64,000 nt of DNA, taken from assembly GCA_964513925.1 (NCBI GenBank), contig CAZENR010000009.1:476-64475 (forward strand), read 5' to 3'. The position numbers were made by a program, and so were the translations under genes. The stretch's first letter is position 1, and each line of letters starts with the position of its first letter. This document shows, in pieces, positions 1,629 to 37,202 of the stretch. The stretch comes from an uncultured Candidatus Peribacteria bacterium. Its GTDB lineage: Bacteria > Patescibacteriota > Gracilibacteria > Peribacterales > Peribacteraceae. The notes beneath the pieces are model-generated. The model made no database searches. It was not told the origin of the DNA and was given only the letters and a program-made list of their open reading frames with translations.

Positions 1629-2016
1629 CCCACTTTTTTAAAAAAGTGGGGTAAAACGTCGCGCGGCAGGCTGGCCTGCGCTCCACGCGCCTTGTGATCC
1701 TAAATTTCTTCGAAATTTCACGGATCACTTCGGCGGGAGCACGACGGCACCAGTCAGATGCGCGACACATCCCTCCGTGTCCAACAATCGAACAGGAACG
1801 AAGGACAAGAATCTGAGCTGCTTCCTTTAGGAAAGAACTCAAGCCACCAAAGGGCGGCGCGCAATGCGCTCGGGGGCCGGAGGTCTGTCCCGCCTCAGCG
1901 GGACGTGGTGGCTCATTGCGCACGCGCTTTTGGTTCTTTTGTCGCTCGGACAAAAGAACGCCTGTATGGATGCCCATCGCCAAGATCAAGGCGGAAGCGG
2001 AGGCTTAATATTTTTT
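1629..2016 (+). ncRNA. structured non-coding element, unknown family, copy 1 (paralogue of 58714-59214)
   Basis: Lies in a 535-nt gene-free gap. Shares with copy 2 a 5' hairpin, a ~190-nt spacer and a ~120-nt core (1841-1959). Stems show compensatory changes, and a 7-nt indel breaks all reading frames. Ends at T-run 2011-2016. Confidence 0.55.
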
Positions 2017-2023
2017 AGCTTTT

Positions 2024-2761
2024 CTAAATCAGCTTTGCAATGTGAAGTAATTCCTCACAAGCAATTCTAAGGCCACCCTGCACCTGATCTATGTCCACTT
2101 TGCGAGCGTTAAATCTACGATTGTGAGCAGAGAGATCTCCCAACTTCTTAAAATCTTGCAATCCCTTTTTAGCATTTCTACTGACAGTAAATGTGGAGTC
2201 CGCCTCAAAAATTTTCAGCAAGTCTGCCAACATATAAAAATGTCCATCACTTCCCTTAATATCAATCGTCCGAGTTTTACTCTCGTATATTTCAATAATC
2301 AGGGTCTCAACAAGACGCCTGCACATAACTGCACAGCAATCATAAAGACCGGAGTCATAACTGGCATTTATCTGTAAAACTACCTTTTCTATGTAGCCCC
2401 TGGTTCCGAGAAAAAGCGCCTTAGGCAAAACACTGTCAGTTGCCTTTGGCTGTTTTGGCAAACCGAGAGTTGACTCGTATGAGATATCTAGCTCTTTTCT
2501 GCCACGAGGGTGCAACCTCCAGTCGTCTTTTTTGCCAGGCACCCGGCTAAACATTTTTTTGTTAGCAGAAAGATTGGCATTAATTCTTGAAATATTCTGC
2601 TTAGGATGACCCAAGTCCAAAAAAACTTTGCAAATCTGCGCAGCCGACATTCCCTGTGTTATATCTTCGCGACCCACATACCACAAAATAGCAGCGGCTC
2701 GGTCAGTAGCTGACAGGTTTATTTCGTCAATTGCCTTAAGGAATGAAATCAATTCAGTCAT
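2024..2761 (-). CDS. wHTH-like N-terminus plus C-terminal DUF4145/HEPN-like domain protein (Abi-like)
   Basis: 245 aa. C-terminal pattern ...CCAVMCRRLVETLIIEIY...LQDFKKLGDLSAHN... resembles the R..GN.aaH signature of DUF4145. Low-GC gene overlapping the upstream ORF by 4 nt (ATGA). Confidence 0.5.
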   Translation of the reverse strand: MTELISFLKAIDEINLSATDRAAAILWYVGREDITQGMSAAQICKVFLDLGHPKQNISRINANLSANKKMFSRVPGKKDDWRLHPRGRKELDISYESTLGLPKQPKATDSVLPKALFLGTRGYIEKVVLQINASYDSGLYDCCAVMCRRLVETLIIEIYESKTRTIDIKGSDGHFYMLADLLKIFEADSTFTVSRNAKKGLQDFKKLGDLSAHNRRFNARKVDIDQVQGGLRIACEELLHIAKLI

Positions 2762-3399
2762 TCATCATTGGAACCCCATTTTTGTGTGCAAAAAGATTTC
2801 GCAATACCTTCTGCTTGCGAAATTTTAGCCGGATTCAAAGTAATGACTCCACCTGGCCTTGCTTGTAGCCACTTAGCATTTTTCACGGCACGACTTGCAT
2901 TGCGATCTGTAATATCAATAGTGAGCAATACGTCAGCAGCATTTGCCTGCGTAGCGTTGCCAAGTCCGGCCTCCTTAAACCAAAGTGCCAATAATGTACC
3001 TGCAAGCGTCGTAGGATTGACTGCATAGGCACCGCGTTCTGGAGTACTTTTCTTCATCGCCTCCCAACAATGACGATCAAGCTGCAAAAAGGGTTTGGTC
3101 TTTGTCGGGTTGATTGCTCCAACCAGCTCAGCCTCTGTAATTCCCAATTTTTTTGCAAATGCAGTAACTGAATTTGCCGGATTCTGATTTGTCGACTGCG
3201 GAGAAAGCTTAGGTGACACTGAGACCTGATTTGCATTGTTCGGCAATGCTACAGGAAATTCTGGCGATTCTGATGTGCTATAAATCACTCCAAGAATTTG
3301 ACGCCAAAGAGCTGGGTCTTCGACTTCTGCAATGACTTTTTCTCCTGCTTTTAGGAGGACTACAAGTTTCTCCTTAGTGGATTTCTGCTTGTTAGACAT
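2758..3399 (-). CDS. hypothetical protein (213 aa), first gene of the low-GC pair
   Basis: ATG start, intact ORF, overlaps the downstream gene by ATGA. No family recognised. Confidence 0.55.
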   Translation of the reverse strand: MSNKQKSTKEKLVVLLKAGEKVIAEVEDPALWRQILGVIYSTSESPEFPVALPNNANQVSVSPKLSPQSTNQNPANSVTAFAKKLGITEAELVGAINPTKTKPFLQLDRHCWEAMKKSTPERGAYAVNPTTLAGTLLALWFKEAGLGNATQANAADVLLTIDITDRNASRAVKNAKWLQARPGGVITLNPAKISQAEGIAKSFCTQKWGSNDE

Positions 3400-3422
3400 A
3401 ATTAATAGTGGAAATTAGCTAT

Positions 3423-3451
3423 AGACTATTAAACGTACTCATCAATGTCAA
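3423..3451 (-). promoter_or_regulatory. possible promoter TTGACA-N17-TAGTCT for the low-GC pair
   Basis: Minus-strand -35 at 3446-3451 and -10 at 3423-3428, inside an AT-rich spacer. Confidence 0.3.
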
Positions 3452-3475
3452 ACATAATGTCTTATGATTTTTGAG

Positions 3476-5509
3476 TCAGATAATTTGCTCCACCGCCCTC
3501 CTCGCCCTCACAACCATTTCCGGGTTAAGGAGTGACCCAAACCGTAGCTCCGGCAGACCGCTCTGGCGGTAGCCATACAACTCTCCTGGGCCGCGCAGTT
3601 TTAGGTCAATTTCCGCCAGCATGAAGCCGGAATCATGCTGCTCCATGGCCTTCAGGCGTTCGGAACGTGCTTGCTCGGGCGTGGTGGTAAAGAGGAAGCA
3701 ATGACTTTGGTAGTCGCCGCGACCCACGCGACCCCGGAACTGGTGCAGCTGCGACAGGCCGAAGCGCTCGCTTCCTTCTATGATGATAAGCGTTGCGTTG
3801 GGTACGTCTATACCCACTTCGATTACCGATGTGGACACAAGGATATCGAAGTGCTTCTCTTTGAATGCGAGCATGACTCTATCCTTCTCTTCAGGCGTCA
3901 TTTTGCCGTGCAGCTTGGCGATTTTGCGGTGCGCGAACGCCTCCTTCAGGCGCTTCTCCTCCGCGTCCACGCTCTTTACTTCGGCCATGGTATCCTCGGT
4001 AGATTCCGTAATGAGCGGGCAGATGACAAATACCTGCCTTCCCTCCCCTATCTGCTGGTCGATAAACAACTCCACCGTCTTGCGACCCGACGGCGGTACG
4101 ACTTTGGTATGAATTGGCTTGCGGTTGCCAGGCTTCTCGGTCAACACGGAAAGATCGTGATCTCCAAAGGCCGTCAGCGCCAGCGTGCGCGGAATGGGTG
4201 TTGCCGTCATGCTGAGGAAGTGAGGACTCCCCTTGTCCTTTAGCCGCTGTCGTTGCGCCACACCGAAACGGTGCTGCTCATCGACGATGGCAAGCACGAG
4301 GTTCGCAAATGTCACCGAATCCTCTATGAGCGAATGCGTGCCGATGACAACGTCCGTCAAGCCCGCACCCAAACTACGGCGAATTGCCTGCGCCTCGGAA
4401 GCCGGGGTAGAGCCTGTAAGCAGCGCCACCGTTGGCAGGCGAATGGAGCGCAAGTGTGCGTACGCCGGGTTCGTGGTTTTTTGGACGAAGCTATGAAAGT
4501 TGAGCAGCATGCGCGTCACACCGCTCATGTGCTGCTTGGCCAGCACCTCGGTAGGAACCATGACTGCACTCTGTCCACCGTGGCGTATGGCATGCAGTAT
4601 CACCGCCACGGCAACCAGTGTTTTTCCGGAGCCGACATCGCCTTCCAGCAAGCGCGACATAGGCTTGTCTTGTTCCATGTCTTTCAAAATCTCGTAAATT
4701 GCCACCTTCTGCCCGCCGGTGGGCTTAAAGGAAAGCGAATCAAAGAATGCCTTAATCACCTCCGGATCCATGGGGATTTGCAGGCGCTTCTGCCGTTCGC
4801 CCTGCCACTCTTTTTTGCGCTCCAATGCCTCGCGCTGGATGGCGAACATCTCCTCGAACGCAAAGCGGTCTTTGGCTGCCGCAAGCTTCTCAGGTGTGGT
4901 TGGATAGTGCAGTTCGAGTATCGCTTCGCTCCTGGAAAGCAGCTGCTCAGATGCAACGACCTCCTCGGGCAGCGTCTCGCGAAACTCTGCAATTGCATCC
5001 TTCACCAGCGCAATCTTCTCACGCAGCCAGCGGCTGGTAATACCTTCGGTTTGGGGATACACCGGCACTATGCGACCGGCATGCAGCAACTGCGTTCGGT
5101 TAGACTGCTCGAACGTCGGGCTTTGTATTTGCAGTTTATAGCCACTCTCCACCACCTTTCCGGTAAGCGTAATGTCCTGCCCGTCGGTGAGCATGCGTTT
5201 AATGTGTGGCTGGTTGAACCACACCACTTGGGCTGCATTCCCTTCCTCGTCTGTAAACTGCCCCTGCACCAGCACCTTACGGGTGCGGGTACGCACCATC
5301 TTCAACTTGGATATCGTGCCGCGCAGGGTCACCTTCTGTCCAAGCGGGGCCTGGAGCAGGGTCATCATCTGGCTTAAATCCTCATGATCGCGCGGAAAAT
5401 GCAGCAAGAGCTCCTCCACGGTTTCTATATCCATGGATTGTAGCCCATCGATAAACGCATCGGTGGTCTTGAGCAGCTTGGCCGTAAGCGTATCGCGCAG
5501 GCGTGGCAC
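3476..5509 (-). CDS. recG: ATP-dependent DNA helicase RecG
   Basis: 677 aa, GTG start. Helicase motifs GDVGSGKT and DEQHRFG with a RecG-type N-terminal wedge region. Confidence 0.92.
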   Translation of the reverse strand: MPRLRDTLTAKLLKTTDAFIDGLQSMDIETVEELLLHFPRDHEDLSQMMTLLQAPLGQKVTLRGTISKLKMVRTRTRKVLVQGQFTDEEGNAAQVVWFNQPHIKRMLTDGQDITLTGKVVESGYKLQIQSPTFEQSNRTQLLHAGRIVPVYPQTEGITSRWLREKIALVKDAIAEFRETLPEEVVASEQLLSRSEAILELHYPTTPEKLAAAKDRFAFEEMFAIQREALERKKEWQGERQKRLQIPMDPEVIKAFFDSLSFKPTGGQKVAIYEILKDMEQDKPMSRLLEGDVGSGKTLVAVAVILHAIRHGGQSAVMVPTEVLAKQHMSGVTRMLLNFHSFVQKTTNPAYAHLRSIRLPTVALLTGSTPASEAQAIRRSLGAGLTDVVIGTHSLIEDSVTFANLVLAIVDEQHRFGVAQRQRLKDKGSPHFLSMTATPIPRTLALTAFGDHDLSVLTEKPGNRKPIHTKVVPPSGRKTVELFIDQQIGEGRQVFVICPLITESTEDTMAEVKSVDAEEKRLKEAFAHRKIAKLHGKMTPEEKDRVMLAFKEKHFDILVSTSVIEVGIDVPNATLIIIEGSERFGLSQLHQFRGRVGRGDYQSHCFLFTTTPEQARSERLKAMEQHDSGFMLAEIDLKLRGPGELYGYRQSGLPELRFGSLLNPEMVVRARRAVEQII

Positions 5510-5560
5510 GTGGATGATTGTACACCCATGCAGTGCCGCCTCGCACTACGATCAACGCGC

Positions 5561-6358
5561 CTAGTAACCTCTGGAACTTGCCGTCGCAGCTTCGCAGTAC
5601 CTGACCGAAGTACAATCGCCCTTTACGGTCGCAGTAGTGGAGTACGACTTTCCTCCGGGACAGTTCATAATGTCATCGGCCCTGTGCTCGGCATCCTTGA
5701 AAGTGATCTTTGGCGGATCTGGGTTGTACTGGAAGCGCAGACCCTTGCTGTCACAGCCTGTCTTGCAAGAATCCGGCAAGCCGCAGCTGTTTTTGAATGC
5801 CTCCAGTCCATCCAGCTTTGCCGAAAGTTGCGCATCGGATAACGCACAACGCTGGGCGATTTTCTTCTGCGCACGACCCTTGGTGTAGGTGCGCAGAATG
5901 GTCCTGCCCGTAGCGTTTACGTCGCGCTTTACCGTTGTGTTGCTGCAGGTTGCCGTGCCGATGTACTCATACCCGTCTTGGCTACTTTGGTGCGAAGAGG
6001 GAATATCACCCTCCTGCACCTCTCCATCCAGCAAAATCTCGCCTTCGAATGGCGAAGCAGCTTCGCTCGGCTCATCGCTGTAGGAGTATGCATCGCCGTC
6101 AAACTCGTCAGCCGTCTCCGTCTCAAGCACCTCGTCTGCGGTCGTTTCGGTGTCGACCAACACGTCATCGGTATTCACCGCTACCTCGGAGGAATACTCG
6201 CCCTCGGTCATCATGTTGAGATCGGTGGTGTCGACAAGCAGATCCGCTTTGTACGACACGGTGCGGAATGCGCCTACGCTGACGGCACCGACCGCCAGCG
6301 CCGTAATGACGAAGGCAGTGGATTGAACGGAGAATGATGCTTTCTTGTTCTTGCGCAT
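5561..6358 (-). CDS. membrane-anchored or secreted protein: acidic linker plus C-terminal 8-Cys domain
   Basis: N-terminal hydrophobic anchor and a D/E-rich linker. The C-terminal ~130 aa align to the C-terminus of 6385..7527. Confidence 0.6.
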   Translation of the reverse strand: MRKNKKASFSVQSTAFVITALAVGAVSVGAFRTVSYKADLLVDTTDLNMMTEGEYSSEVAVNTDDVLVDTETTADEVLETETADEFDGDAYSYSDEPSEAASPFEGEILLDGEVQEGDIPSSHQSSQDGYEYIGTATCSNTTVKRDVNATGRTILRTYTKGRAQKKIAQRCALSDAQLSAKLDGLEAFKNSCGLPDSCKTGCDSKGLRFQYNPDPPKITFKDAEHRADDIMNCPGGKSYSTTATVKGDCTSVRYCEAATASSRGY

Positions 6359-6384
6359 ACAGAGAAGGTGTAGGAGATGGATGT

Positions 6385-7527
6385 TTATCGACGAGAGAAG
6401 TCCTTATTTTCGCAAATACGAGTGGAGGTACACTCGCCTTTCACCGTGGCGGATGCCGCATATGCCTTGTTATCCGCACATGCCATGGCAGTAACCGCAC
6501 GATACTCGGTGACCTTGGTGTCATACACCAGCGGCTTTGGTGACAAATCATGAACAACCCCCTTGTCGCGACAGAGCGTGTCGGACACACACGGGCCCGG
6601 ATTTCCGCAGGAGTTGATAAATGCCTCCTTTGCCTCACGCTGAGCGGAAGCCTCGGCCTCGAGTCGGCTGCAGCGCATGGCTACGTTATCTTCGATCGTA
6701 CGCTTCACAGGAGGGCCAGGCGCCTTGGGCTTTTCACCAGGGCGTGTCGGTGGCCGGGTTGGCGGAGCAAGAAAAATGGTTCGCGTGTATTTCCTCATTC
6801 CCGTCCTGCCAGCGGCGGATACCTTCACTGTCCTGTCGACGTTGGCGCAAATGGCGATGCCGACGAACTCGGATGACGCCCCTCCGGAAATCTGCGAAGA
6901 CGAACTTCCAGCATCGTGGTACGGGTCGTTGGACCACGAGAACAAATCATCCTTGGTAAGTTGATACTCGTTTCCGTATTCGTCTGTGACAACTGAGACA
7001 ACTTCATTGTCATACGGAGCCAGGCCGCACACTGCGGAGTCGGACATGACCAGCTCGTCTTCGTTGATGGTGTCGAATTCTTCAGAAGACGATACGGACG
7101 AGGACATCTGTTCCGACGAGGATTCGGAGGAGGCTACCTGAGAAGAAGACTCCTGTTCGGACGATGAAAACGACGATTCGGACGAATACTCCGAAGAAGA
7201 TTCCGAAGAGGACCAGTACCACCCCCAGTCTGAAGAGGAGTACGAAGAATCTGAAGACGCGTAGGAGTACCACTCGGAAGACGCATACGAGGAGTAGTCG
7301 GAGGAGGAGTAGTCGGAGGAGGAGTAGCCGTAGTCCGAGGAGTAGTCGGAGGAGGAGTAGCCGTAGTCCGAGGAGGAATCCTCGGAGGAGGAGCTGGAAT
7401 CACCGCCAAGGTCACCGGTAAGCCGAAGCGACTGCATCATGCTGACCACAACGACAGAGACGGCAATGAACGCCAGAATCCCAGTAGTCACGCGTACGGA
7501 TGTCTGAGACCGCTTTGCGGTAGGCAT
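6385..7527 (-). CDS. membrane-anchored Ser/Tyr/Asp-rich repeat protein with the same C-terminal 8-Cys domain
   Basis: N-terminal TM segment, SSDYSSDYGYSSSDY-type repeats, a Pro-rich insert, then the shared Cys pattern. Confidence 0.6.
   Translation of the reverse strand: MPTAKRSQTSVRVTTGILAFIAVSVVVVSMMQSLRLTGDLGGDSSSSSEDSSSDYGYSSSDYSSDYGYSSSDYSSSDYSSYASSEWYSYASSDSSYSSSDWGWYWSSSESSSEYSSESSFSSSEQESSSQVASSESSSEQMSSSVSSSEEFDTINEDELVMSDSAVCGLAPYDNEVVSVVTDEYGNEYQLTKDDLFSWSNDPYHDAGSSSSQISGGASSEFVGIAICANVDRTVKVSAAGRTGMRKYTRTIFLAPPTRPPTRPGEKPKAPGPPVKRTIEDNVAMRCSRLEAEASAQREAKEAFINSCGNPGPCVSDTLCRDKGVVHDLSPKPLVYDTKVTEYRAVTAMACADNKAYAASATVKGECTSTRICENKDFSRR
7080..7410 (-). repeat. coding low-complexity tandem repeats (Ser/Asp/Tyr/Glu)
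   Basis: Reiterated GTAGTCGGAGGAGGA / GTAGCCGTAGTCCGAGGA units on the plus strand. Confidence 0.8.
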
Positions 7528-7572
7528 AATTGGGTGTTGGTATTCGGCTTATTATAGCACAATTTTGCATTT

Positions 7573-8889
7573 TTATGCAACCCACAGCCAATTGGCGTAG
7601 CGGAAGAGGAGCAGGCCCTGGAGCAAGGCTGCACACACGAACATTGTCGCAAGGGACACTTCTAGCGTGGCACGCAACGCAGGGCTTGGCCGCCAGCGCA
7701 TCAGCAATGGTGCTGCGAGCAGCGTCAGCAGTGCAAAAACCGGGAATGTATGACGCACCATGGACTCCATGCCCATGGGCGCAAAACTGGCGCCCGAAAT
7801 ATACAGAATCCATCCGGCACACCAATACAAGACAATGCGAGGCAACCAGTCGCTGCTACCCGCTTTCCGAGAAAGCGCCCGCACCGCATCGGCTACGACA
7901 ATAGCCAAAAACACCCAACCGATGACAGCGGCGGTAAAACGCCCCAGTTGAGCCGGGTCCAAGAGCGGCCCCTGCACTTCTGGAACCAACAGTCTCGGCG
8001 GCCAACGCAGGGGAAAGAGGTAATCCGGATGAATTCCCCAGCCCAGCCGCTGACGCCAGATGTACAAATCCCAATGCCCGAACTGCAACTGGCAATACAA
8101 CAGGAACCCCAAGCCTCCGCAGGCAGCGAGGACGCTGTCCCACAAGGCAAACGAATACAATCCTTTCTGTGACTGCATACAACGCCTCCACAGCGCAACG
8201 ATCAACGGCAGTGCGGCAAGCGGCAACGCAACAAACTTTGTTGCAGTCATAACGACTCCATGCAGCGTTGCCAATACGCCGGATGCATCTCGGCGATCCA
8301 GCGTCCAGTAGGCAAATCCCAGCAACGATGCCAGAAACAAGGATTCGGAATACGGCATCACCATGAAGAATGCTCCCGGGTGTACTGCAATCGCCAGTAT
8401 GCACAATGCCTGCAGGAGCGCCGGAATACGCAAACGCGCAAGCCAAGCAAGAATGTACGCCCACGCCACCACCGCTGCGCAGCGGCTGACAAGCAGCATT
8501 GCGGTAACCAGCGGTGCAACGCCCAACAATCTCAGCACTCTCACAAACAACGGATACGCCGGGTAGAACGCGATATCGGTTCCGGCTTCTATTTGGCTAC
8601 GGGTTAAAGATGACGGCTCCACTTCATGCGGAATGCTGCTGTTGTATCCGTTCAACACGATGCCGCCGTAGAACTTGGCATCCCACTTCAGCAACATGTG
8701 ATCGGCCTGCCAAAGCGTGGTGCCCAACGCCAGCGGAACACAGAGTGTCTGAACGGTAACGATTACCAATGCCAGCAGCAACCGTTGTGCACAAACCTGC
8801 GCGCGTTCGGGCAGTAGCACCCACGGATACGTCAGGAGAGCCGGAACCGGTGAGCACTGCGCGAAAGGCATCTCCACAGTATACCGCAA
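7573..8889 (-). CDS. polytopic membrane glycosyltransferase-like protein (PIG-V/GT-C-like)
   Basis: 438 aa with more than 8 TM segments. WDAKFYGGIVLNGY...IAFYPAYPLFVR resembles the PIG-V mannosyltransferase signature. Confidence 0.5.
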   Translation of the reverse strand: MRYTVEMPFAQCSPVPALLTYPWVLLPERAQVCAQRLLLALVIVTVQTLCVPLALGTTLWQADHMLLKWDAKFYGGIVLNGYNSSIPHEVEPSSLTRSQIEAGTDIAFYPAYPLFVRVLRLLGVAPLVTAMLLVSRCAAVVAWAYILAWLARLRIPALLQALCILAIAVHPGAFFMVMPYSESLFLASLLGFAYWTLDRRDASGVLATLHGVVMTATKFVALPLAALPLIVALWRRCMQSQKGLYSFALWDSVLAACGGLGFLLYCQLQFGHWDLYIWRQRLGWGIHPDYLFPLRWPPRLLVPEVQGPLLDPAQLGRFTAAVIGWVFLAIVVADAVRALSRKAGSSDWLPRIVLYWCAGWILYISGASFAPMGMESMVRHTFPVFALLTLLAAPLLMRWRPSPALRATLEVSLATMFVCAALLQGLLLFRYANWLWVA

Positions 8890-8918
8890 AATTCATGTTT
8901 CCCCTACCGCTTCAGCGC

Positions 8919-9332
8919 TTACGCATGTGCATGGCCGCGATGCTTCTCGCCCTGCAAGGCCTTGTGCAGCAATTTCTCCTCTTTGGCGTCACGCTCAACT
9001 TCCTTCAGCTCACGCTGGAGGAAAATGGTGAGAATGGTGCGCAGTACGATGATTGCTGCAAGCTTTCCAAGATCGTCCCAGGTCGGGTTTACCAGCGATT
9101 CAATAATGTCCTTACCCACCAAAAACTCCAATCCAAGGGCCAAATGCTGACCCAACTCTATGCGAATTGCAGAGAGGATGTCTTCTTGCCGAAGCAGCTG
9201 GCGGGAAACAAACAGCCACAAGCTCTTCACCAAGCCTACAAGCATGATGACAATGCCCACATAACCGATGATTTCGCCTAGAAACAAGCTGGTACTACTT
9301 AAATCCAAAATGTTGATCGGCAGATGATCCAT
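8919..9332 (-). CDS. DUF1622-like small membrane protein
   Basis: Start taken at MDHLPINIL (9332). ...IRIELGQHLALGLEFLVGKDIIES... matches the DUF1622 pattern. Confidence 0.5.
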   Translation of the reverse strand: MDHLPINILDLSSTSLFLGEIIGYVGIVIMLVGLVKSLWLFVSRQLLRQEDILSAIRIELGQHLALGLEFLVGKDIIESLVNPTWDDLGKLAAIIVLRTILTIFLQRELKEVERDAKEEKLLHKALQGEKHRGHAHA

Positions 9333-9450
9333 AGCTGCTATGAAGGGAATGTATGTTAAGCACATTATACACGAAAACAACCCAGGGCGCACGCGGCTGA
9401 CAAAACGACGCACTCCCAAATGAACGCAAATTCTGGTATACTAACGAGGT

Positions 9451-9840
9451 ATGGCGGATTTCTCGACATACATCACACAGCAACCCTCACTCACCGAAGA
9501 GCAGCAGAAGAAGGCCGGTCAGCCCATTCCGGGCGACATGGACGACGATCATAAGAACTTCTGCAAAACCATCTCCACGCTGCTCGAGTCGGGCACTATC
9601 GATGTCACAAAGCCCGAAACATTCTTAAACCAAAGCGTGTACGATTCGCTGCCGGACGAGTGGAAGGCAAAAACCGATCTGATCATCGTGAACATGGCCA
9701 CCCTCCTCGACCATATCTACGGCTTCTACAAATCTAAGCAAACTCCCGATGCCTGCCCGCAGCTTGCAACCATGATCGAGCAGTTGTGGGAAATGAAGCA
9801 ACGCATAGAAGCCCACGGCCACGACGTGTTTAAGTTCTAG
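9451..9840 (+). CDS. hypothetical protein (129 aa)
   Basis: ATG lies 8 nt after an extended -10 (TGGTATACT, 9434-9442). Confidence 0.55.
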   Translation: MADFSTYITQQPSLTEEQQKKAGQPIPGDMDDDHKNFCKTISTLLESGTIDVTKPETFLNQSVYDSLPDEWKAKTDLIIVNMATLLDHIYGFYKSKQTPDACPQLATMIEQLWEMKQRIEAHGHDVFKF

Positions 9841-9887
9841 AACCGAACGTCAATCCACACACACATCAATCCCCTACCCAAACCCGT

Positions 9888-10826
9888 ATGAACCGCTTCA
9901 ACCCAGATGCGCTTCCCGCTCCCGATACAGGCGCGGAATTCCTAGACCCACGCGACCGACTTGCCTCGCTGCGCGACCAGGTGAACATGGCCGACCCGCG
10001 CGCCATTGCCGATCGTGCCATCAACAGCATTCGCAGTAACCCCAATATGTCCACGCGCGACGCCGTGGCGCTGCTGCGCCAAGCGGCCGACTTGCTATCG
10101 GGCATTACGGACCGCGCAACGGGATCCCGTCGTTTTGCCGCACTGCAGTCTGAAGGACGCGTTCTTGATAATCTCAATCCGCGACTGGCCCTGCGAACCA
10201 ACCGCCTCGCCATTTCGGGCGAACCGGTGACCGTACCGGTGCGCACTCGCCCATATATGGGTAACCCCGAAATGCTTTCACGCGAACTGGCAGGCCGCAC
10301 TATGGCCACGTTCCAGGGGATGAACAACGCCGAACTAACCGACCTGCACGAGCAAATGATGGCCATTAACCGCAGCTGCGGAACCAACTGGCGTCCGGTA
10401 CGCCTGCGCGGGTCCACCGGCCCGGACGGAGAGGCGATGCACGACTGTATTTGGGTCAACGATCCGCGCCAGCAGGGTGCATATCTCATCATTCCCGACA
10501 TGCACACCCAGGAATTCATGCGCAACGATGCAGAGTTTTCGGCGCGCGGGTTCCGCATCCGCGAGCACAGCACCTGGAACGCGCCAAACGGTGAGCTGAT
10601 TCACTGGGTACTGTGGGAGCAGGTACCGCGTGCCTACCCTGGCGCATTCATGACCGGCGGCATGGGTATGTACCCGCAGCCGCTCATCCGCGCCGACCGC
10701 ACATTCCCAGGCATCGGCCCAGTACCGCCTCCGGGTGTTCGCGGTCCGCTACCACCGCCGCCTCCTGGATTCAGGCCTGGCTTCCCTGGCGGGCCGGTAC
10801 GGTTCCCAGGAACTCGCGGCCTCTAA
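9888..10826 (+). CDS. hypothetical protein with Pro/Gly-rich C-terminus (312 aa)
   Basis: Intact ORF followed by a bidirectional terminator. Confidence 0.55.
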   Translation: MNRFNPDALPAPDTGAEFLDPRDRLASLRDQVNMADPRAIADRAINSIRSNPNMSTRDAVALLRQAADLLSGITDRATGSRRFAALQSEGRVLDNLNPRLALRTNRLAISGEPVTVPVRTRPYMGNPEMLSRELAGRTMATFQGMNNAELTDLHEQMMAINRSCGTNWRPVRLRGSTGPDGEAMHDCIWVNDPRQQGAYLIIPDMHTQEFMRNDAEFSARGFRIREHSTWNAPNGELIHWVLWEQVPRAYPGAFMTGGMGMYPQPLIRADRTFPGIGPVPPPGVRGPLPPPPPGFRPGFPGGPVRFPGTRGL

Positions 10827-10835
10827 ATTGGATAC

Positions 10836-10861
10836 AAAAAACGGCCCTCGGGCCGTTTTTT
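10836..10861. terminator. bidirectional intrinsic terminator
   Basis: AAAAAACGGCCCTCGGGCCGTTTTTT between convergent genes. Confidence 0.8.
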
Positions 10862-10887
10862 AAATCTTGGACAGAACGGACTCTGGA

Positions 10888-11811
10888 CTACGGCCTCACC
10901 CACACAATCCTGTTGTCGTGCTTCCACCATGTCATCTGGCGCTTGGCATACTGACGGGTCTTTGCGGCAATGACCGGCTCTACCGAAAGCGGATCTATAC
11001 CGTCTTGTAAGGCGCGCACAAGTTCAGGATACCCATGACTCCGCATGCCGGGGCTCTGCAAAGTATACCCCTGCTTCAGCAGCTGCCGTACTTCGTCGAT
11101 CCAGCCGCCTCGTAGGAGAAGCGGGGTGCGTGCGTCAATCCGCTTTGTTAGTTCTTCTCGTTGCCAATGCATGCCGAAGATAAGCACGTCATAGCGGCAC
11201 GAAACCGTCACCAACTGTGCTGACTTCGGCTTTCCAGTCAGTCGGTGAATTTCCAGCGCACGTATCACATACGGCTTATTCTCTCGTGGAATGACTTTGG
11301 CGGACTCTGGATCTCTATCCGCAAGCTCAGCAAACAACTTCGCCCCGCCATCCTTGTCGTATGACGCCTCCAGCTCCGCCCGAAGCGCCGCATCTTTTGC
11401 AGGCAGCGGCTGCAAGCCGTCGATAATCGCACTGATGTACAGCATAGATCCACCAACTAGTAATGGAACTACATTGCGTGCGTGCATCTCCTCTATGGTC
11501 TCTGTAGCCATGCGCTGGTACCGGGCGGCCGTAATTTCCTCCGAAGGATCAACCACTGAGAAGAGATGGTGGGGTACGCCTGCGGTTTCCGCCGGAGTGA
11601 TCTTTGCAGTTCCAATGTCCATTCCTTTATACAACTGGCGTGAATCGGCGTTGATAATCTCCGCTGTATATCCAGCTGTCTTTAAGGAGAGTGCCAGCTG
11701 CACCGAAAACGCGGTCTTGCCGCTGGCCGTCGGTCCTAATACCACGACAAGCGGACGCTTGGCCGTAGCAAGGAATGCCTTGGTGGTTTGTAGTACGGAT
11801 TCCACAGGCAA
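10888..11811 (-). CDS. miaA: tRNA dimethylallyltransferase
   Basis: 307 aa. P-loop GPTASGKT and MiaA-type sequence throughout. Confidence 0.9.
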   Translation of the reverse strand: MPVESVLQTTKAFLATAKRPLVVVLGPTASGKTAFSVQLALSLKTAGYTAEIINADSRQLYKGMDIGTAKITPAETAGVPHHLFSVVDPSEEITAARYQRMATETIEEMHARNVVPLLVGGSMLYISAIIDGLQPLPAKDAALRAELEASYDKDGGAKLFAELADRDPESAKVIPRENKPYVIRALEIHRLTGKPKSAQLVTVSCRYDVLIFGMHWQREELTKRIDARTPLLLRGGWIDEVRQLLKQGYTLQSPGMRSHGYPELVRALQDGIDPLSVEPVIAAKTRQYAKRQMTWWKHDNRIVWVRP

Positions 11812-12115
11812 AGAATAGCGGATTTACTGCAAGATGCACTGAGCGTGACCGCGGTGTGCGCTGCGCGCGGGGTCTACTGGAGGTCGCTCAGCGGACGCAA
11901 TTTCTTGGCCACTTCTTTGTCGCAAACAACGTATTCATACCCGCAGAAGAATCCACCTCACTTTGACAAGTTTTCTATTCTTTTCAGTACAACAACATTT
12001 TTTCCACACAGTGAAACTGCCGCAGAGTGTCGTTTTTCGCTATACTGATATCGAAACGTGATTTTCAAAAGACTATACACATAGCCCTCACTTCCTTTCC
12101 ATTCTCTCTCGTCCC

Positions 12116-12769
12116 ATGCACCCGCAAATTCAGTCGATCGCTCAACAGATTTCCCGCGGCCATTTGACGCCGCAGAACAACGTACTTGTCCCCACCGTGA
12201 TTGAAAAAACCCAGTTCGGTGAGCGTGTGTACGATATCTACTCTCGACTGCTGGAGGAGCGCATTGTCTTCTTGGGAACGCCCATCAACGACGCAATCGC
12301 CAACACGGTGATCGCTCAGCTGCTGTTCTTGGAAAAGCAGGATCCGAAGAAAGACATCATCTTCTACGTGAACTCTCCGGGCGGACAAGTCAGCTCCACC
12401 ATGGCCATGTACGACACCATGCAGCTGGTCAGCCCCGATGTTTCCACCGTGTGCTTGGGAATGGCTGCATCCGGCGGCGCCATCATTCTTATGGCTGGCG
12501 CCAAGGGAAAGCGTTTTGCGCTCCCCCACTCCGAAATCATGATCCACCAGCCTCTTGGCGGCACCGAGGGACAGGCAACCGACATCGCCATTCATGCCGA
12601 GCACATCATCCGCATGAAGGATATGCTGAACGAAATGATCGCCAAGCACTCCGGTCAAAAAGTGGCCAAGGTAAAGGTGGACACGGAGCGTGACAAGTTT
12701 CTCACGGCGCAAGAAGCGCTGGACTACGGCCTGATCGATAAGATTATCTCCGGCAAAACCGCCGCGTAA
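12116..12769 (+). CDS. clpP: ATP-dependent Clp protease proteolytic subunit
   Basis: 217 aa. ClpP signatures around [11 protein letters not shown] and IMIHQPLGG. Confidence 0.95.
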
Positions 12770-12788
12770 ACACTCTTCGAGCCGCAAC

Positions 12789-12821
12789 AAAAAACGGCGC
12801 CTCGCTCCGAGGCGCCGTTTT
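12789..12821. terminator. bidirectional intrinsic terminator
   Basis: AAAAAACGGCGCCTCG-ctc-CGAGGCGCCGTTTT. Confidence 0.85.
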
Positions 12822-12841
12822 CATAGTCATGCCGTACAAGT

Positions 12842-13264
12842 TTACTCAACCGATTCCGTTTGCTGGAACGCAAAATCAGGCTGCGGGTTGAGCGCAAAGA
12901 AGAATACGAGCAGCCAGACGAGAGGTGGGAAACAGGCCGAGATCATGTCTGGCAGCGGTATGCCGGTCATCAGGGTTTTCAGGAGCAATCCAACGGGGAT
13001 GGATGCCAACGCGGCACCGCCCACCCAAGCTGTTATGTACTGGTAGCGCCCTACCAGGAGCATGCCGCCACCGAAAATAAACAGTGCGGGTAAGAAGTAC
13101 GCCCATACTGTCCCGACAAGCTCCAGTGCGCCAAGACCGTCTATGACATTTGCAACGAACGGTGCGAAATCGCGGTATTCCGCAATGCCGATGAGGAGCA
13201 TCGGCACGCCTACTGCAATGCGCAGAGCCAGGTTGGAAATCTCTGATGGCGACTTGTAGTTCAT
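12842..13264 (-). CDS. DoxX-like 4-TM membrane protein
   Basis: 140 aa, hydrophobic. Paralogous to 13286..13777. Confidence 0.5.
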   Translation of the reverse strand: MNYKSPSEISNLALRIAVGVPMLLIGIAEYRDFAPFVANVIDGLGALELVGTVWAYFLPALFIFGGGMLLVGRYQYITAWVGGAALASIPVGLLLKTLMTGIPLPDMISACFPPLVWLLVFFFALNPQPDFAFQQTESVE

Positions 13265-13285
13265 GAAAGATGGGAGTGACTTAAA

Positions 13286-13777
13286 TTACTTCTTGGGACA
13301 GATGCAAGGCCCACCCTTGCTGCAGGTGCAACCAGGTGCGCAACCAGCGGTGCTGCCGCAGCAGAACATTTTCTGAATGACCCAGAACGTGATCAGCATG
13401 ATGCTGGCGTTTTGAATTGCTGCGCCCGCATTGCCCATAACAGATACATCACCAACCATCACCGACAAGCCAGCGTAACCCAAAATGCCTCCGAGCGAAG
13501 CCAGGATACAAATCTTGGCGATGCACTTCAGCTGGCCAATTGCGAACAATAAGCCGCCAGCAATCTGCAGCGCGGGAACAATGTATGCCAATACTCCTGC
13601 AGCCATGGCCAACGCCGGTACTGTGGGGAAAGCGCCCTTGGCCATTTCAACGAATCCTCCAAGGTTGCGGTAATGGTTTACGCCAAATCCGGCCAAAGCA
13701 AGACCGAATCCAATGCGGGGCAACCACTTTGCGTACGTGGACGGACAGGGTTGTACGGGACATTTGCAGCACGACAT
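13286..13777 (-). CDS. DoxX-like membrane protein with Cys-rich N- and C-terminal tails
   Basis: Start at MSCCKCPVQPCP (13777); ATG 13831 is an alternative. C-terminus is CCGSTAGCAPGCTCSKGGPCICPKK. The longer ORF to 14077 would overlap tgt. Confidence 0.5.
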   Translation of the reverse strand: MSCCKCPVQPCPSTYAKWLPRIGFGLALAGFGVNHYRNLGGFVEMAKGAFPTVPALAMAAGVLAYIVPALQIAGGLLFAIGQLKCIAKICILASLGGILGYAGLSVMVGDVSVMGNAGAAIQNASIMLITFWVIQKMFCCGSTAGCAPGCTCSKGGPCICPKK

Positions 13778-13907
13778 GGGAAATGAGAGAAGGAATAAGG
13801 TGTCGCAATTATCGCATTGGGCAGTGCACATTGGACTATCAGTTGGGTGTACTTGCAACGCGAATCGCGCACTGCCATCTCTACCGAAGCACGCTACAAT
13901 CTCCGAG

Positions 13908-15044
13908 ATGTTCACCCTGCACAAGAGCACCGGCCTCGGAAGGCGCGCCACGCTCAGAACCGCGCATGGCGATATAGAGACTCCGTTTTTCATGCCGGTT
14001 GCCACTGCCGGCGCCATGAAAGGCATCACACTGCCGGATCTTGAGGAGCTAGGAGCACAGATTCTGCTCTGCAACACCTACCATCTGCATGTACAGCCCG
14101 GAGAAGCCATTGTCCGCGACGCCGGAGGACTGCACGGATTTCTGCACTGGAACAAGCCGATTCTCACCGACTCCGGGGGGTTTCAAGTGTTTTCGCTCAA
14201 GAGCATTAGAACCATTACCGACGAGGGTGTGCGATTCCAGAACCATCGCAACGGCAGCCCGCTGTTCATCGGGCCTAAGGAATCCATAATCATTCAGCAT
14301 GCATTGGGGGCCGACATCATCATGTGCTTTGACGAATGTCCGCCTTCCACTGCGGCACGCGTTGACCAAATGAAAGCGGTGGATAGGACGCTTCGTTGGG
14401 CCAAGGAATGCAAAAGGGTTCATGAAGAGTTAAAGACCATGAAAGCAGGACTCCAAGACTCCAAGATTCCGGTTGCCAAGGGTAGAAAGGAGGCAAAACA
14501 AACAACTGACTCGCCACTCCTGTTCGGCATCGTCCAAGGCGGCCTGGAGCGAGATTTGCGGGAGAAGTGCGCCAACGAGCTGATTGCCATAGGCTTCGAT
14601 GGGTACGCCGTGGGCGGGCTGGCAGTAGGCGAAACTGAGAGCGAGATGATGGATGTTCTTGATGTGGTGTGCCCGCTGTTACCGGAAAACAAGCCGCGCT
14701 ACCTGATGGGTGTTGGCGAAATACACCAACTGCAGGAAGCCGCCAAACGCGGCATCGATATGGCCGATTGCGTCTCGCCAATGCGCGAAGCTAGGCACGG
14801 CAACGTATGGCTGAGCACGGGCAAAAAGGTGCGCATTCACCGCAGCGAGTACCGCACCGACTATTCTGCCATAGACGAGCATTCCCCCACCCGCTACGGA
14901 CGAGAGCACTCTAAAGCATACGTGCATCATCTCATGCGCTTGGGTGAACGTTACGGTGAAACCATCGCCTGCATGCAAAACATGGCGGTCATGCTGGACG
15001 CCATGAAAAAGCTGCGCGGAAAGATCGACGAATTCACCCACTGA
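13908..15044 (+). CDS. tgt: queuine tRNA-ribosyltransferase
   Basis: Start at MFTLHKSTG. TGT motifs include LTDSGGFQVFS and GYAVGGLAVGE. Confidence 0.92.
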   Translation: MFTLHKSTGLGRRATLRTAHGDIETPFFMPVATAGAMKGITLPDLEELGAQILLCNTYHLHVQPGEAIVRDAGGLHGFLHWNKPILTDSGGFQVFSLKSIRTITDEGVRFQNHRNGSPLFIGPKESIIIQHALGADIIMCFDECPPSTAARVDQMKAVDRTLRWAKECKRVHEELKTMKAGLQDSKIPVAKGRKEAKQTTDSPLLFGIVQGGLERDLREKCANELIAIGFDGYAVGGLAVGETESEMMDVLDVVCPLLPENKPRYLMGVGEIHQLQEAAKRGIDMADCVSPMREARHGNVWLSTGKKVRIHRSEYRTDYSAIDEHSPTRYGREHSKAYVHHLMRLGERYGETIACMQNMAVMLDAMKKLRGKIDEFTH

Positions 15045-15089
15045 CCCCTTGCGGAGCCAGTGGGCGTATGAGTACCTGCTGTAGCTGTT

Positions 15090-15239
15090 CTAGTAACGTG
15101 GGACGTCTAGCTCCTCAAGACGCAATCGGGTGTAACCCGGCTTCGTAGGAGGTTCGTCCTCGATAGCTAGTAGAGCTTCAAGGAACAGCAGGATGAATCG
15201 CAGGACTACGCCTACGATGATGAGTAACAAGAGTCCCAT
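15090..15239 (-). CDS. 49-aa single-pass hydrophobic peptide (below the ORF-track cutoff)
   Basis: Sequence MGLLLLIIVGVVLRFILLFLEALLAIEDEPPTKPGYTRLRLEELDVPRY. GGAGGG lies 8 nt before the ATG, and a consensus promoter lies upstream. Confidence 0.55.
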   Translation of the reverse strand: MGLLLLIIVGVVLRFILLFLEALLAIEDEPPTKPGYTRLRLEELDVPRY

Positions 15240-15290
15240 GGTGGAACCCTCCGACAACTAGTGCACTATTGCACGTAGATGCCTGTTTTC

Positions 15291-15318
15291 ATTATAATAA
15301 TTTTAGAATTTTTGTCAA
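15291..15318 (-). promoter_or_regulatory. consensus sigma70 promoter TTGACA-N16-TATAAT
   Basis: Minus-strand -35 at 15313-15318 and -10 at 15291-15296. Confidence 0.65.
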
Positions 15319-15584
15319 GTTTTGCGCCTAACCCACCAACACTTGATTGCTGGGAGCGAAAGCGTGGATAACAGATAACCTCCTGTCGGCACGCATGCGT
15401 GCACCCAAGGCTGCGACACGCCGATTGTGAATAAGAAGACGCAGGCGACCACATACGTCGCACTCGCTATCAGCATGCGCCGAAATACGCTGGTCTCCCA
15501 AGCCTTGTCCGCCTCCACGCGGGCATTGCGAAACTGCAGCGACCGGATCTCGGCCTCTATACGATCCAGACGGTCGTCGGCCAT
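15315..15584 (-). CDS. small membrane protein (89 aa) downstream of rplU
   Basis: ATG lies 1 nt after the rplU stop. Amphipathic N-terminus followed by two hydrophobic segments. Confidence 0.5.
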   Translation of the reverse strand: MADDRLDRIEAEIRSLQFRNARVEADKAWETSVFRRMLIASATYVVACVFLFTIGVSQPWVHACVPTGGYLLSTLSLPAIKCWWVRRKT

Positions 15585-15585
15585 A

Positions 15586-15903
15586 CTACTTACCGGCGAC
15601 GGCAGTCACTTCGATCTCGGTGTAGTCCTGGCGGTGGCCGCGCAGAATCTTGTGGTAGCGCTTGCGGCGCTTGAATTTGCGAACCACGATCTTCTCGCCC
15701 TTGCTGTGAGCCAAGACCTTGGCAGTCACGGAAGCACCGGAAACGTACGGCTTGCCGACAGTGGCATCCGAACCGCTGGAGAGCAGCAGCACTTTCTCGA
15801 ACTTCACGCTGTCGCCAACCTTGGCATCCAGCTTCTGAACCTTCAATTTCATTCCTTTCTCGGCCTTCTCCTGAAAACCGGCGATATCGACAATTGCGAA
15901 CAT
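15586..15903 (-). CDS. rplU: 50S ribosomal protein L21
   Basis: 105 aa from MFAIVDIAGFQEK; bL21 family throughout. Confidence 0.9.
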   Translation of the reverse strand: MFAIVDIAGFQEKAEKGMKLKVQKLDAKVGDSVKFEKVLLLSSGSDATVGKPYVSGASVTAKVLAHSKGEKIVVRKFKRRKRYHKILRGHRQDYTEIEVTAVAGK

Positions 15904-15927
15904 GGGCAGTGCGTAAAAAGCTGGGAG

Positions 15928-15956
15928 AGTGTAGCTGGACACGAAAAGGCACGCAA
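15928..15956 (-). promoter_or_regulatory. possible rplU promoter TTGCGT-N17-TACACT
   Basis: Minus-strand hexamers at 15951-15956 and 15928-15933. Confidence 0.35.
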
Positions 15957-16083
15957 TACCTTCTTGGCACCCCCGTATCGGAGGGAAAAGCGGTTTTTCG
16001 GCTGGGAGTAACGAAAGAGCTGCCACGGAAGCATATTTGCTTGTCAGACACAGGAAAAGTTGAGTACAGTCCTCCCCTTCCCT

Positions 16084-20905: not shown

Positions 20906-20983
20906 GGGGCGTCTACTAAAAAAGGGAAGACGCGACTAAAAATGTACTGTATTCTCTCGCGCACGGGCGCCTAGCTCAGTTGG
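20906..20983 (+). repeat. diverged duplicate of the tRNA-Val(TAC) promoter/leader plus first 19 nt of the tRNA
   Basis: About 85% identical to 21001-21077 (offset 94-95 nt). The tRNA-like part 20965-20983 breaks off in the D-loop. Confidence 0.8.
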
Positions 20984-21058
20984 CCTAGCCTCGCAGATGC
21001 GGGGCGTCTGCAAAAAAGAGAAGACGCGACGAAACATGTGATGTATCCTCATGCGCAC

Positions 21059-21135
21059 GGGCGCCTAGCTCAGTTGGTTAGAGCGACGAGCTTACACCTC
21101 GTAGGTCAGGGGTTCGAATCCCTTGGCGCCCACCA
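21059..21135 (+). tRNA. tRNA-Val (anticodon TAC), CCA encoded
   Basis: Cloverleaf read by hand: GGGCGCC/GGCGCCC acceptor, loop CTTACAC, T-arm AGGGGTTCGAATCCCTT. Confidence 0.9.
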
Positions 21136-36778: not shown

Positions 36779-36983
36779 TTGACTTACGTTTCGTATTATT
36801 ATCTCATAACATTATTAGAAAATCAAGTCTTATTATTGTCAAGAATAGAGCAAAAAGGACGAAGTATAGGCATGGCAGTAGTAAAACGCCAGAGATCTTC
36901 ATTTGGAAAGGGCGGTAACATCCGTTGCGCACTGCACAGCGATCGAGCCGCCAACTCGTACCTCCGGCAGGATGTTGAGAAAA

Positions 36984-37047
36984 GCCGACTGGCGCTTCTT
37001 GTAAGAATCGATCAGAATCCACATCGTCGGGGTGTAGCTTAGTTGGC
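36984..37047 (+). repeat. duplicate of the tRNA-Pro upstream region plus first 20 nt of the tRNA
   Basis: 62 of 64 nt identical to 37083-37146 (offset 99 nt). The tRNA-like part is 37028-37047. Confidence 0.85.
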
Positions 37048-37126
37048 CCAAGTCCTGCCCCAGCGGGACGCTAATAAAAAAGGCCGACTGGCGCTTCTCG
37101 AAAGAATCGATCAGAATCCACATCGT

Positions 37127-37202
37127 CGGGGTGTAGCTTAGTTGGCAAAGCGCCAGGCTGGGGGTCTGGAGACCCAGGGTTCGAGTCCCTGCACCCCGAC
37201 CA
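37127..37202 (+). tRNA. tRNA-Pro (anticodon GGG), CCA encoded
   Basis: CGGGGTG/CACCCCG acceptor, loop CTGGGGG, T-arm CAGGGTTCGAGTCCCTG. Confidence 0.88.

Follow-up and report, generated by a model that had tools for sequence, protein, structure and literature searches.

A low-GC gene pair beside recG in a Peribacteria bacterium combines a winged-helix protein with a divergent DUF4145-like HEPN protein

The 64,000-nt stretch of contig CAZENR010000009.1 analysed here (hereafter the window), from an uncultured Candidatus Peribacteria bacterium, carries two genes, here called A and B, between the stop codon of recG and a repeated GC-rich element (Table 1). The two genes overlap by ATGA at 2758-2761, where the TGA of A shares bases with the ATG of B; this is visible both in the list of open reading frames (ORFs) and in the sequence, and it supports the translational coupling of A and B proposed in the initial annotation. 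An AT-rich spacer of 76 nt lies ahead of A, and the 80 nt directly before its ATG contain 28% G+C (GC). No terminator was called after B in a promoter and terminator scan.

Table 1. Coordinates of the cassette, its parts and the adjoining recG gene
Feature	Position	Strand	Description and basis
Gene A	2758-3399	minus	ORF, 213 aa; winged-helix partner of an unannotated family; proposed neutraliser/regulator of B
Gene B	2024-2761	minus	ORF, 245 aa; winged helix-turn-helix plus DUF4145-like HEPN domain; proposed RNase effector
recG	3476-5509	minus	Same strand as A and B
Putative promoter/operator spacer	3400-3475	minus	AT-rich, from the recG stop to the ATG of A
TTGACA (-35)	3451-3446	minus	Sequence
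Candidate -10, TAGTCT	3428-3423	minus	17-nt spacer from TTGACA
Degenerate operator-like site AGACATTATGT	3462-3452	minus	Alignment to proteobacterial cassettes
Degenerate operator-like site GAGTACGTT	3440-3432	minus	Alignment to proteobacterial cassettes
A residues 10-40	3280-3372	minus	Beta-hairpin and helix module, KLxVxLKAGExVVAEVEDxxLWQxVLxxI
A residues 41-72	3184-3279	minus	Poorly conserved, low-confidence linker, probably disordered
A residues 73-208	2776-3183	minus	Helical domain with winged-helix core; predicted local distance difference test (pLDDT) >90
B residues 1-95	2477-2761	minus	Winged helix-turn-helix
B residues 114-245	2027-2422	minus	HEPN-fold helical bundle
B motif K-x2-GD-x2-AH-x-RR-x-NA	2105-2149	minus	Near-invariant residues in the 116-member family

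The initial annotation had also described about 1.45 kb of visibly A+T-rich sequence at this position, and the low-GC gene pair stands out far beyond the window's own variation. The cassette (2024-3475) has 42.5% GC against 54.8% for the window, and no other 1.45 kb in the 64 kb is as poor in GC (z = -4.9 vs other stretches). A profile of 300-nt segments agrees, with GC of 0.40-0.48 over 1950-3450 and 0.54-0.64 in the flanks, and GC at third codon positions (GC3) is 0.355 in A and 0.415 in B compared with 0.684 in recG.

A relative's version of the same site can be seen in a Logan contig (L092) that comes from another sample; over positions 3488-17798 of the window the two are syntenic at about 85% nucleotide identity. 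The identity reaches the last few codons of recG and then ends. About 45 nt past the recG stop of L092 stands CCGCCACTTCTTTGTGCGCGACA, which matches the region just 5' of the core of the second copy of the GC-rich element (59085-59060), and no cassette sequence is present in the ~80 nt after recG; similarity between L092 and the window seems, by eye, to resume near position 2022, just after the stop of B. The cassette appears to lie between recG and the repeated element and to comprise the promoter, A and B alone, and given its GC deviation (z = -4.9), its GC3 (0.36-0.42 vs 0.68) and the cassette-free sequence after recG in L092, its insertion is probably recent. Horizontal acquisition, as initially suggested, is supported by the anomalous composition, by the absence of the cassette from the ~80 nt after recG in L092 and by the presence of the pair in at least seven phyla and in unrelated surroundings. 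One further contig (L001) is 99.9% identical to the window and comes from the same organism, and metagenome contigs searched for exact 32-mers gave no match from other strains across the recG junction.

Among Pfam models, B matches only DUF4145 (PF13643), below threshold and with an E-value of 0.0017 over residues 140-222. Its PADLOC matches are at chance level only (PtuB, E 0.004; AbiJ, E 0.014), nothing significant was found in NCBIfam or PHROGs, and the B family profile gave only chance-level matches to PDB sequences (E > 0.5). Homologues of B form at least 773 clusters (53-64% identity), nearly all of which lack both a name and a Pfam annotation. DUF4145 is the only Pfam family that recurs among the relatives of B that were scanned: it is matched by 35 of 116 close homologues at E <= 0.01, by 16 of 39 distant B-like proteins at E <= 1e-4 and, at 26.9 bits and hence above the gathering score, by a Nostoc relative (L066). 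Because matches to this model occur among close and distant relatives, with the Nostoc one above the gathering score, B can be regarded as a divergent offshoot of DUF4145, a family that Anantharaman et al. assign to the HEPN superfamily (PMC3710099).

The AlphaFold2 (AF2) model of B, built from a 116-sequence alignment (pLDDT 94.4), places a winged helix-turn-helix (wHTH) domain ahead of a helical bundle, with a linker between the two. The wHTH comprises helices 2-11, 18-29, 40-49 and 57-66, strands 71-73 and 80-83, and helix 85-95; in Foldseek comparison with the PDB it resembles MarR, Fur, ArsR and forkhead winged helices, and Pfam MarR_2 is matched by 4 of the 116 family members. The bundle is formed by helix 1 (122-136), helix 2 (140-161), an insert (165-187), helix 3 (195-213) and helix 4 (221-241), and on this predicted structure it has the HEPN helix arrangement. 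It superposes on solved HEPN structures of the minimal type, on 2hsb with a probability of 1.00, a template-modelling (TM) score to target of 0.74 and a root-mean-square deviation of 2.5 Å over 121 columns, and its further Foldseek matches are 1ufb (TM to target 0.66), 2q00 (0.69), 1o3u, Csm6 and HepT 6m6u. The wHTH plus DUF4145/HEPN-like architecture first read from the translation is therefore upheld by the AF2 model, Foldseek and the Pfam matches of the family, B itself being sub-threshold.

The segment of B that had been likened to the R..GN.aaH signature of DUF4145 actually reads K205-x2-G208-D209-x2-A212-H213, followed by an invariant RR.NA. The signature R-x2-G-N-x3-H is not present as such in B: its spacing and His are kept, its Arg is Lys and its Asn is Asp. 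Within the motif, G208, A212, H213, R215 and A219 are invariant across the 116 members, and S-A-H-x-R is invariant in the 39 distant B-like proteins as well. Invariant or near-invariant residues in B as a whole are R148, R149, E152, E157, E160, R164, R195, K205, G208, D209, A212, H213, R215, R216, N218, A219, D223, R232 and E237.

In HEPN proteins, the Rx4-6H motif is located at the end of helix 3 or the start of the 3-4 loop, and Ex3[KR] in helix 2 (PMC3710099). H213 closes helix 3 and so occupies the position of Rx4-6H, and E160-x3-R164 in helix 2 fits Ex3[KR], E160, E152 and E157 being invariant and R164 being Arg in 107 of 116 members. No Arg stands 5-7 residues before H213; K205 lies at -8, and two Arg residues, R215 and R216, come after H213. 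The spacing of K205 and H213 equals that of R146 and H154 in RAZR, a DUF4145 RNase in which these two residues have been validated by mutation (PMC13017515). The strict conservation of the motif argues for a functional site, which may be catalytically equivalent.

The partner of B had been called uncharacterised, and the description holds: A has no significant match in Pfam, PADLOC, NCBIfam or PHROGs (the sole listed match, in NCBIfam, has E 0.16). Its homologues number 24 in a single-sequence search and 132 in a profile search, and an exhaustive profile search of 1.84 billion representatives returned 285 clusters at 50% identity, nearly all of about 200 aa. In the AF2 model of A, built from 118 sequences (pLDDT 85), the N-terminal module consists of strands 14-18 and 21-26 and helix 29-40, with conserved L12, L16, A18, L31, W32 and L36. 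The linker that follows falls below pLDDT 50 at residues 51-68 and varies in length and sequence across the alignment of the family. The helical domain is well predicted over about residues 74-205, and its core resembles FOXN1 forkhead, MarR and DtxR winged helices (Foldseek probability 0.8-0.9, TM to target 0.54-0.62), with weak E-values of 0.1-1. No close match to A was found among solved or viral structures, its family profile gave only chance-level matches to PDB sequences (E > 0.5), and A and B are not detectably homologous (profile-profile probability 0.4%).

The distribution of the pair was surveyed by searching one genome for each of 185,579 GTDB species for B-like proteins, which gave 187 matching stretches and, after selection, 80 loci. 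These come from Patescibacteria, Alpha-, Beta- and Gammaproteobacteria, Acidobacteriota, Gemmatimonadota, Actinomycetota, Planctomycetota, Verrucomicrobiota, Bacteroidota, Cyanobacteria and Bacillota. In 34 loci, a close B homologue (at least 36% identity by tblastn) has an A homologue (E 1e-53 to 1e-88) immediately upstream, the two genes being spaced by -4 to +31 nt. These 34 A-B loci represent at least seven phyla, their hosts being Alpha-, Beta- and Gammaproteobacteria, Acidobacteriota, Gemmatimonadota, Actinomycetota, Planctomycetota, Verrucomicrobiota, Bacteroidota and Patescibacteria.

Loci without A upstream of a close B are contig ends, fragments, one 447-aa protein and one Parcubacteria genome. 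The 447-aa ORF (L042, 9113-10456) carries the HEPN domain of B at its C-terminus behind a long unrelated N-terminal region, and may be either a fusion or an artefact of assembly or frameshift. The genome is that of Parcubacteria bacterium C7867-007 (L015/L008), in which a full-length B homologue of 56% identity stands with an unrelated upstream protein of 193 aa, a natural partner swap inside the close B clade.

No third gene is conserved with the pair. Within 5 kb of these 34 pairs there are 291 ORFs, heterogeneous and mostly housekeeping by Pfam, and the commonest neighbour families, IS110 transposases among them, reach 3-5 ORFs each; some integrases are also present. One copy lies in a mobile element of the arrangement integrase ... 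A-B - DUF2924 - large methyltransferase ... Abi_C, and a second in an element of the integrative/conjugative type (relaxase/TrwB ... A-B - serine recombinase), while gene-context look-ups placed three further copies alone among housekeeping genes. PADLOC matches among the 291 ORFs are scattered (mad2/3/8, SspH, ShosTA, MTase_II, AbiO, Nhi and PDC-S41), and no PADLOC family occurs in more than three of them, as raw counts without a matched background rate. Enrichment in defence islands, which the initial annotation had put forward as a check on its defence reading, is at most weak: a handful of neighbours match PADLOC and none is a recurrent partner.

The cassette DNA had no blastn match in plasmids, B had no tblastn match in 72,556 plasmids or 50,697 phages, and 2.9 million IMG/VR contigs yielded one distant, HEPN-only match to B. 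On the basis of the missing plasmid and phage matches, the cassette is not typically plasmid- or phage-borne in those collections. Where the pair decays, B alone is frameshifted or truncated beside an intact A in two loci (L050 and L043) and both genes are broken in a third (L059); in none is A alone broken. The pair shows two traits of type II-like toxin-antitoxin (TA) modules, namely a small co-directional gene pair, overlapping or closely spaced, that forms an autonomous unit, and a patchy, horizontally transferred distribution.

Beyond the close clade, the distant B-like proteins retain a HEPN core (TRGYIE...RRLxETLIIE...GDxSAHxRRxNA) and vary at the N-terminus, some being HEPN-only forms of about 170 aa and others, of 259-300 aa, carrying other helical N-domains. 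Nearly every one of them has a different upstream partner of 190-400 aa; these include DUF5343-family proteins (one at E 1e-29), double zinc-ribbon proteins and several unannotated families. To the eye they are built alike: an N-terminal module, often a beta-hairpin and then a helix, is followed by a linker of low complexity, often rich in Lys, and by a segment that looks like a winged helix and resembles the one in A. The winged-helix domain of A shows weak similarity to distant partners in hidden Markov model (HMM) searches (E 2e-3 and 6e-3, 64-sequence set), and an HMM of its N-terminal module misses the similar-looking hairpin/helix segments of other partners, a likeness seen by eye only. 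A conserved effector with swapped antitoxins is a pattern described for TA networks.

Two side observations concern these partners. Four A-like proteins (P0331, P0346, P0353 and P0363) are extended at the C-terminus by one or two wHTH-like repeats of about 70 aa. The repeats look like the wHTH at the C-terminus of the partners found in L064 and in the Nostoc loci L066 and L079, a likeness suggestive of domain shuffling among partner families. Separately, HEPN-only relatives of B (about 170-185 aa), each preceded by a protein of 210-245 aa, occur in L057, L065, L067, L068, L071, L075, L076, L078, L082-L084, L086 and L088-L091. The preceding proteins end in a conserved ...INLxIHIS..A.PDQIDQIF... 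segment; the two that were scanned, in L065 and L090, match Pfam DUF5343, and the others are alike by eye. The HEPN-only and DUF5343-like pairs appear to be a second unannotated two-gene family built on the same HEPN core. No mention of DUF5343 was found in the literature.

The initial annotation gave the pair its own AT-rich promoter region; the 80 nt ahead of A have 28% GC, and the spacer holds a TTGACA hexamer. In five proteobacterial cassettes TTGACA stands between two GAC-N2-3-GTC palindromes, located at about -72 and about -48, and others have single sites. The layout in the window, AGACATTATGT-TTGACA-N5-GAGTACGTT, aligns with the GAC-N3-GTC / TTGACA / GAC-N3-GTC arrangement of the proteobacterial cassettes. 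Across 32 upstream regions, GAC-N2-5-GTC occurs at 15 sites in 10 of the regions, vs 2.6 +/- 1.6 in shuffles and 4.0 from the background of the loci. Autoregulation by A/B is plausible on these sequence grounds.

We interpret the cassette as a horizontally acquired, TA-like or abortive-infection module built on a HEPN RNase, with B held in check by A and the promoter repressed by the two proteins together, and put the probability of this reading at about one half. What the analysis establishes is the gene structure and composition of the cassette, its predicted folds and conserved residues, its mobility, the strict linkage of A to B and the exchange of partners in the wider clade; the RNase activity of B, its binding and inhibition by A, autoregulation and a trigger are inferred. 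A would be made first from a shared transcript, translationally coupled to B, and would then bind B and mask its HEPN site, with either the hairpin/helix module or the flexible linker contacting the HEPN domain. The C-terminal HEPN domain of B would dimerise and cleave RNA in a metal-independent manner through H213 together with K205, R215, R216 and E160, and its N-terminal winged helix would bind nucleic acid. Repression of the cassette promoter would be exerted by the winged helix of A and the wHTH of B through the GAC-N-GTC-type palindromes around the -35. If A were lost or displaced, whether by loss of the cassette, by proteolysis or by a phage or plasmid trigger, B would be freed and growth would arrest.

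That the cassette is a selfish or conflict module is suggested by its autonomous and mobile character, its foreign composition, the lack of conserved neighbours, the RNase-related effector domain and the swapping of a DNA-binding partner, and also because the cassette has no other gene to regulate. The decay pattern points in the same direction, towards a TA-like pair. Several observations weigh against this interpretation. The DUF4145 score of B is 18.8 bits and does not reach the gathering score of 23.1 bits. The canonical HEPN Arg is replaced, position 205 being Lys in 115 of 116 members and never Arg, as is the Asn of DUF4145, position 209 being Asp in 115 of 116. Foldseek E-values for the whole of B are weak (0.06-1), as is expected for a two-domain query with about 10% identity. 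Because of the Lys for Arg, the Asp for Asn, the sub-threshold Pfam score and these E-values, the HEPN domain may be non-catalytic.

Upstream of A, the GAC-GTC signal is strong only in related proteobacterial cassettes and is partly phylogenetic, general palindromes exceed shuffles and barely exceed the genomic background (mean best arm 5.47 vs 5.15), and a consensus scan of 3400-3475 called no promoter. The decay pattern comes from three loci, a small base, and because the L092 contig ends about 80 nt past recG the empty site is visible on one side only.

Of the other explanations, the most credible, although we think it unlikely, is a sensor-effector defence pair in which B is inactive alone and A senses a phage or plasmid component, either protein or nucleic acid, through its winged helix and activates or assembles B. 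DUF4145/HEPN effectors do act in RAZR, BxaP and Ishtar, and RAZR is activated by phage proteins; the patchy, horizontally transferred distribution, the copies beside an integrase, a large methyltransferase and Abi_C or in a conjugative element, and the few neighbours that are MADS, SspH, ShosTA, AbiO or Nhi proteins would all suit such a role, as would the variation of partners around a conserved HEPN domain expected for arms-race sensors. Most neighbourhoods are nevertheless housekeeping with no recurrent defence gene, and no PADLOC system match rises above chance. The gene order, with a small DNA-binding protein first and an overlapping effector second, together with the palindromes, fits an inhibitor and autoregulator better, and the two explanations overlap biologically. 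Less probable again is a non-toxic regulatory pair, in which B is a transcription factor that uses a non-catalytic HEPN domain for dimerisation or ligand binding and A is a co-regulator of mobile-element genes. Winged-helix domains in both proteins, the replaced Arg and Asn of the canonical motifs, the example of the MtlR family, in which a HEPN domain has turned regulator, and the PaaX- and FadR-like regulators among the whole-chain Foldseek matches of B (at low TM) speak for it. It is disfavoured by the invariant polar site (H213, R215, R148, E152, E157 and E160 in close and distant members alike, against a mean column identity of 31-54%), which a mere scaffold would hardly call for, by the absence of a regulon, there being no conserved neighbour genes to regulate, and by the HEPN-only relatives of 170 aa, which have no DNA-binding domain.

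We also considered a joint action of the cassette with the adjacent RNA-like element (core 1839-1959), in the manner of a retron or an RNA antitoxin, and regard this as highly improbable. The element is a GC-rich repeat of about 125 nt, present in two copies (1839-1959 and 58931-59058, minus strand) that are 84% identical; its predicted and conserved structure has an 11-bp hairpin, a long-range GCGCAATG/CATTGCGC stem and a terminal hairpin, and the copies differ by three compensatory pair changes in conserved stems. The first copy begins about 65 nt past the stop of B, and type IX retrons do combine a non-coding RNA with HEPN and winged-helix proteins. However, the second copy has no A or B nearby, the window holding one of each, and L092 has sequence matching the flank of that copy after recG without a cassette, which goes against the functional juxtaposition with an RNA that had initially been raised. 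Downstream of B the next ORFs are short, none reaching the size of a reverse transcriptase, judged by size alone without a family scan; neither A nor B matches a PADLOC retron effector, the element has no Rfam match, and the sequence downstream of the pair is unrelated in the 34 other A-B loci. A retron or RNA-antitoxin role of the element is thereby largely refuted, since the element occurs independently of the cassette; the element itself is probably either a small RNA or a repeat specific to the host.

Toxin and defence modules of the HEPN type are familiar, but this gene pair is new. No description of the A-B pair was found in the literature, searches for wHTH-HEPN combinations gave nothing relevant, and neither A nor B has a function name in any source queried. 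The closest effectors are the DUF4145 defence RNases RAZR/PD-T7-4, BxaP and Ishtar1, which like B have a divergent DUF4145 HEPN domain and a patchy distribution; as in B, an N-terminal nucleic-acid- or metal-binding domain is fused to HEPN, and in RAZR, too, helix 3 closes with a His, catalytic in that protein, and a basic residue stands eight positions earlier (R146/H154, K205/H213 in B). The DUF4145 domain of RAZR has been shown experimentally to be an RNase effector (PMC13017515). RAZR (zinc finger), BxaP (HEAT-like) and Ishtar (beta-rich C-domain) are nevertheless single-gene systems, whereas A-B is an obligate pair with a wHTH; their motif is R..GN..aH vs K..GD..AH.RR.NA in B, which has no PADLOC PD-T7-4 match and scores below gathering. 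HepT/MntA is likewise a mobile two-gene system with a small RNase toxin of the HEPN type, and the C-domain of B superposes on 6m6u, 1o3u and 2hsb. In that system, however, a nucleotidyltransferase antitoxin AMPylates the toxin, a fold that A lacks, and HepT has Rx4HxY and no wHTH.

Csx1 and Csm6 share with B the order HTH then HEPN in one chain (Foldseek probability 0.6-0.93 for Csm6 and CARF-truncated Csx1), but B has neither a CARF sensor nor a CRISPR context, and TM to query is 0.33-0.39. MtlR belongs to the DUF4145-like HEPN group and shows the fold serving regulation (PMC3710099); it differs in its conserved mannitol operon and in a subset without the motif, whereas B has an invariant His and only A as operon partner. 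The best mechanistic precedent is the type IX retron Retron-Kva2, in which overlapping genes encode a non-canonical nuclease of the HEPN type together with a winged-helix partner of about 245 aa that has small alpha/beta HEPN-binding domains and an HTH, wraps the HEPN protein and blocks its active site (bioRxiv 10.64898/2026.07.14.738597). A has a comparable build of small beta/alpha module, linker and winged helix. The cassette differs in that it has no adjacent ORF of reverse-transcriptase size and no msr/msd, the partner gene comes first, no sequence similarity was found (no PADLOC match), and B carries its own wHTH.

These comparisons allow a broader reading, which we put forward tentatively. 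The A-B pair may be one branch of a large and as yet undescribed superfamily of two-gene modules, each joining a conserved DUF4145-like HEPN domain to an interchangeable winged-helix partner encoded upstream (the A family, DUF5343 or zinc-ribbon proteins), with a variable N-terminal module, a linker of low complexity and a winged-helix-like segment, that cages the nuclease, reads a nucleic-acid or protein signal and so sets the specificity of the trigger. Such modules would possibly be the free-standing counterpart of the HEPN and winged-helix pair of type IX retrons.

Some further features of the window lie apart from the cassette. Two adjacent ORFs at 5561-6358 and 6385-7527 (minus strand) have an N-terminal hydrophobic segment and similar Cys-containing C-terminal regions, and one has long Ser/Tyr/Asp-rich low-complexity repeats (15-nt DNA periodicity; tandem repeats at 7273-7404). 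The region of these ORFs measures ~1.1 kb in L092 vs 3.4 kb in the window, and is therefore variable between relatives. Direct repeats of 88% identity stand just upstream of tRNA-Val(tac), at 20918-20983 vs 21012-21077 (spacing 94 nt), and just upstream of tRNA-Pro(ggg), at 36965-37047 vs 37064-37146 (spacing 99 nt, also 88% identical). Both include the first ~18 nt of the tRNA, so that a partial duplicate of leader and tRNA 5' end precedes each gene. In the GC-rich region to the left of the cassette, a 43-nt direct repeat (418-460 and 949-991) is 93% identical over a distance of 531 nt.

HEPN RNases are among the commonest effectors in prokaryotic conflict systems, and how most of them are restrained is unexplained. 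The cassette is a compact and widely transferred pair in which neither protein is annotated and whose effector domain recurs with several winged-helix partners. The practical gain is modest and there is no conceptual surprise. If A cages B in the way seen in the type IX retron, the family would serve as an uncomplicated model, made of two proteins, of how HEPN proteins are regulated and how partners are swapped, and it would be one that present defence and TA annotation pipelines overlook. If the superfamily reading is true, it would amount to a new and widespread toxin-antitoxin or immune family.

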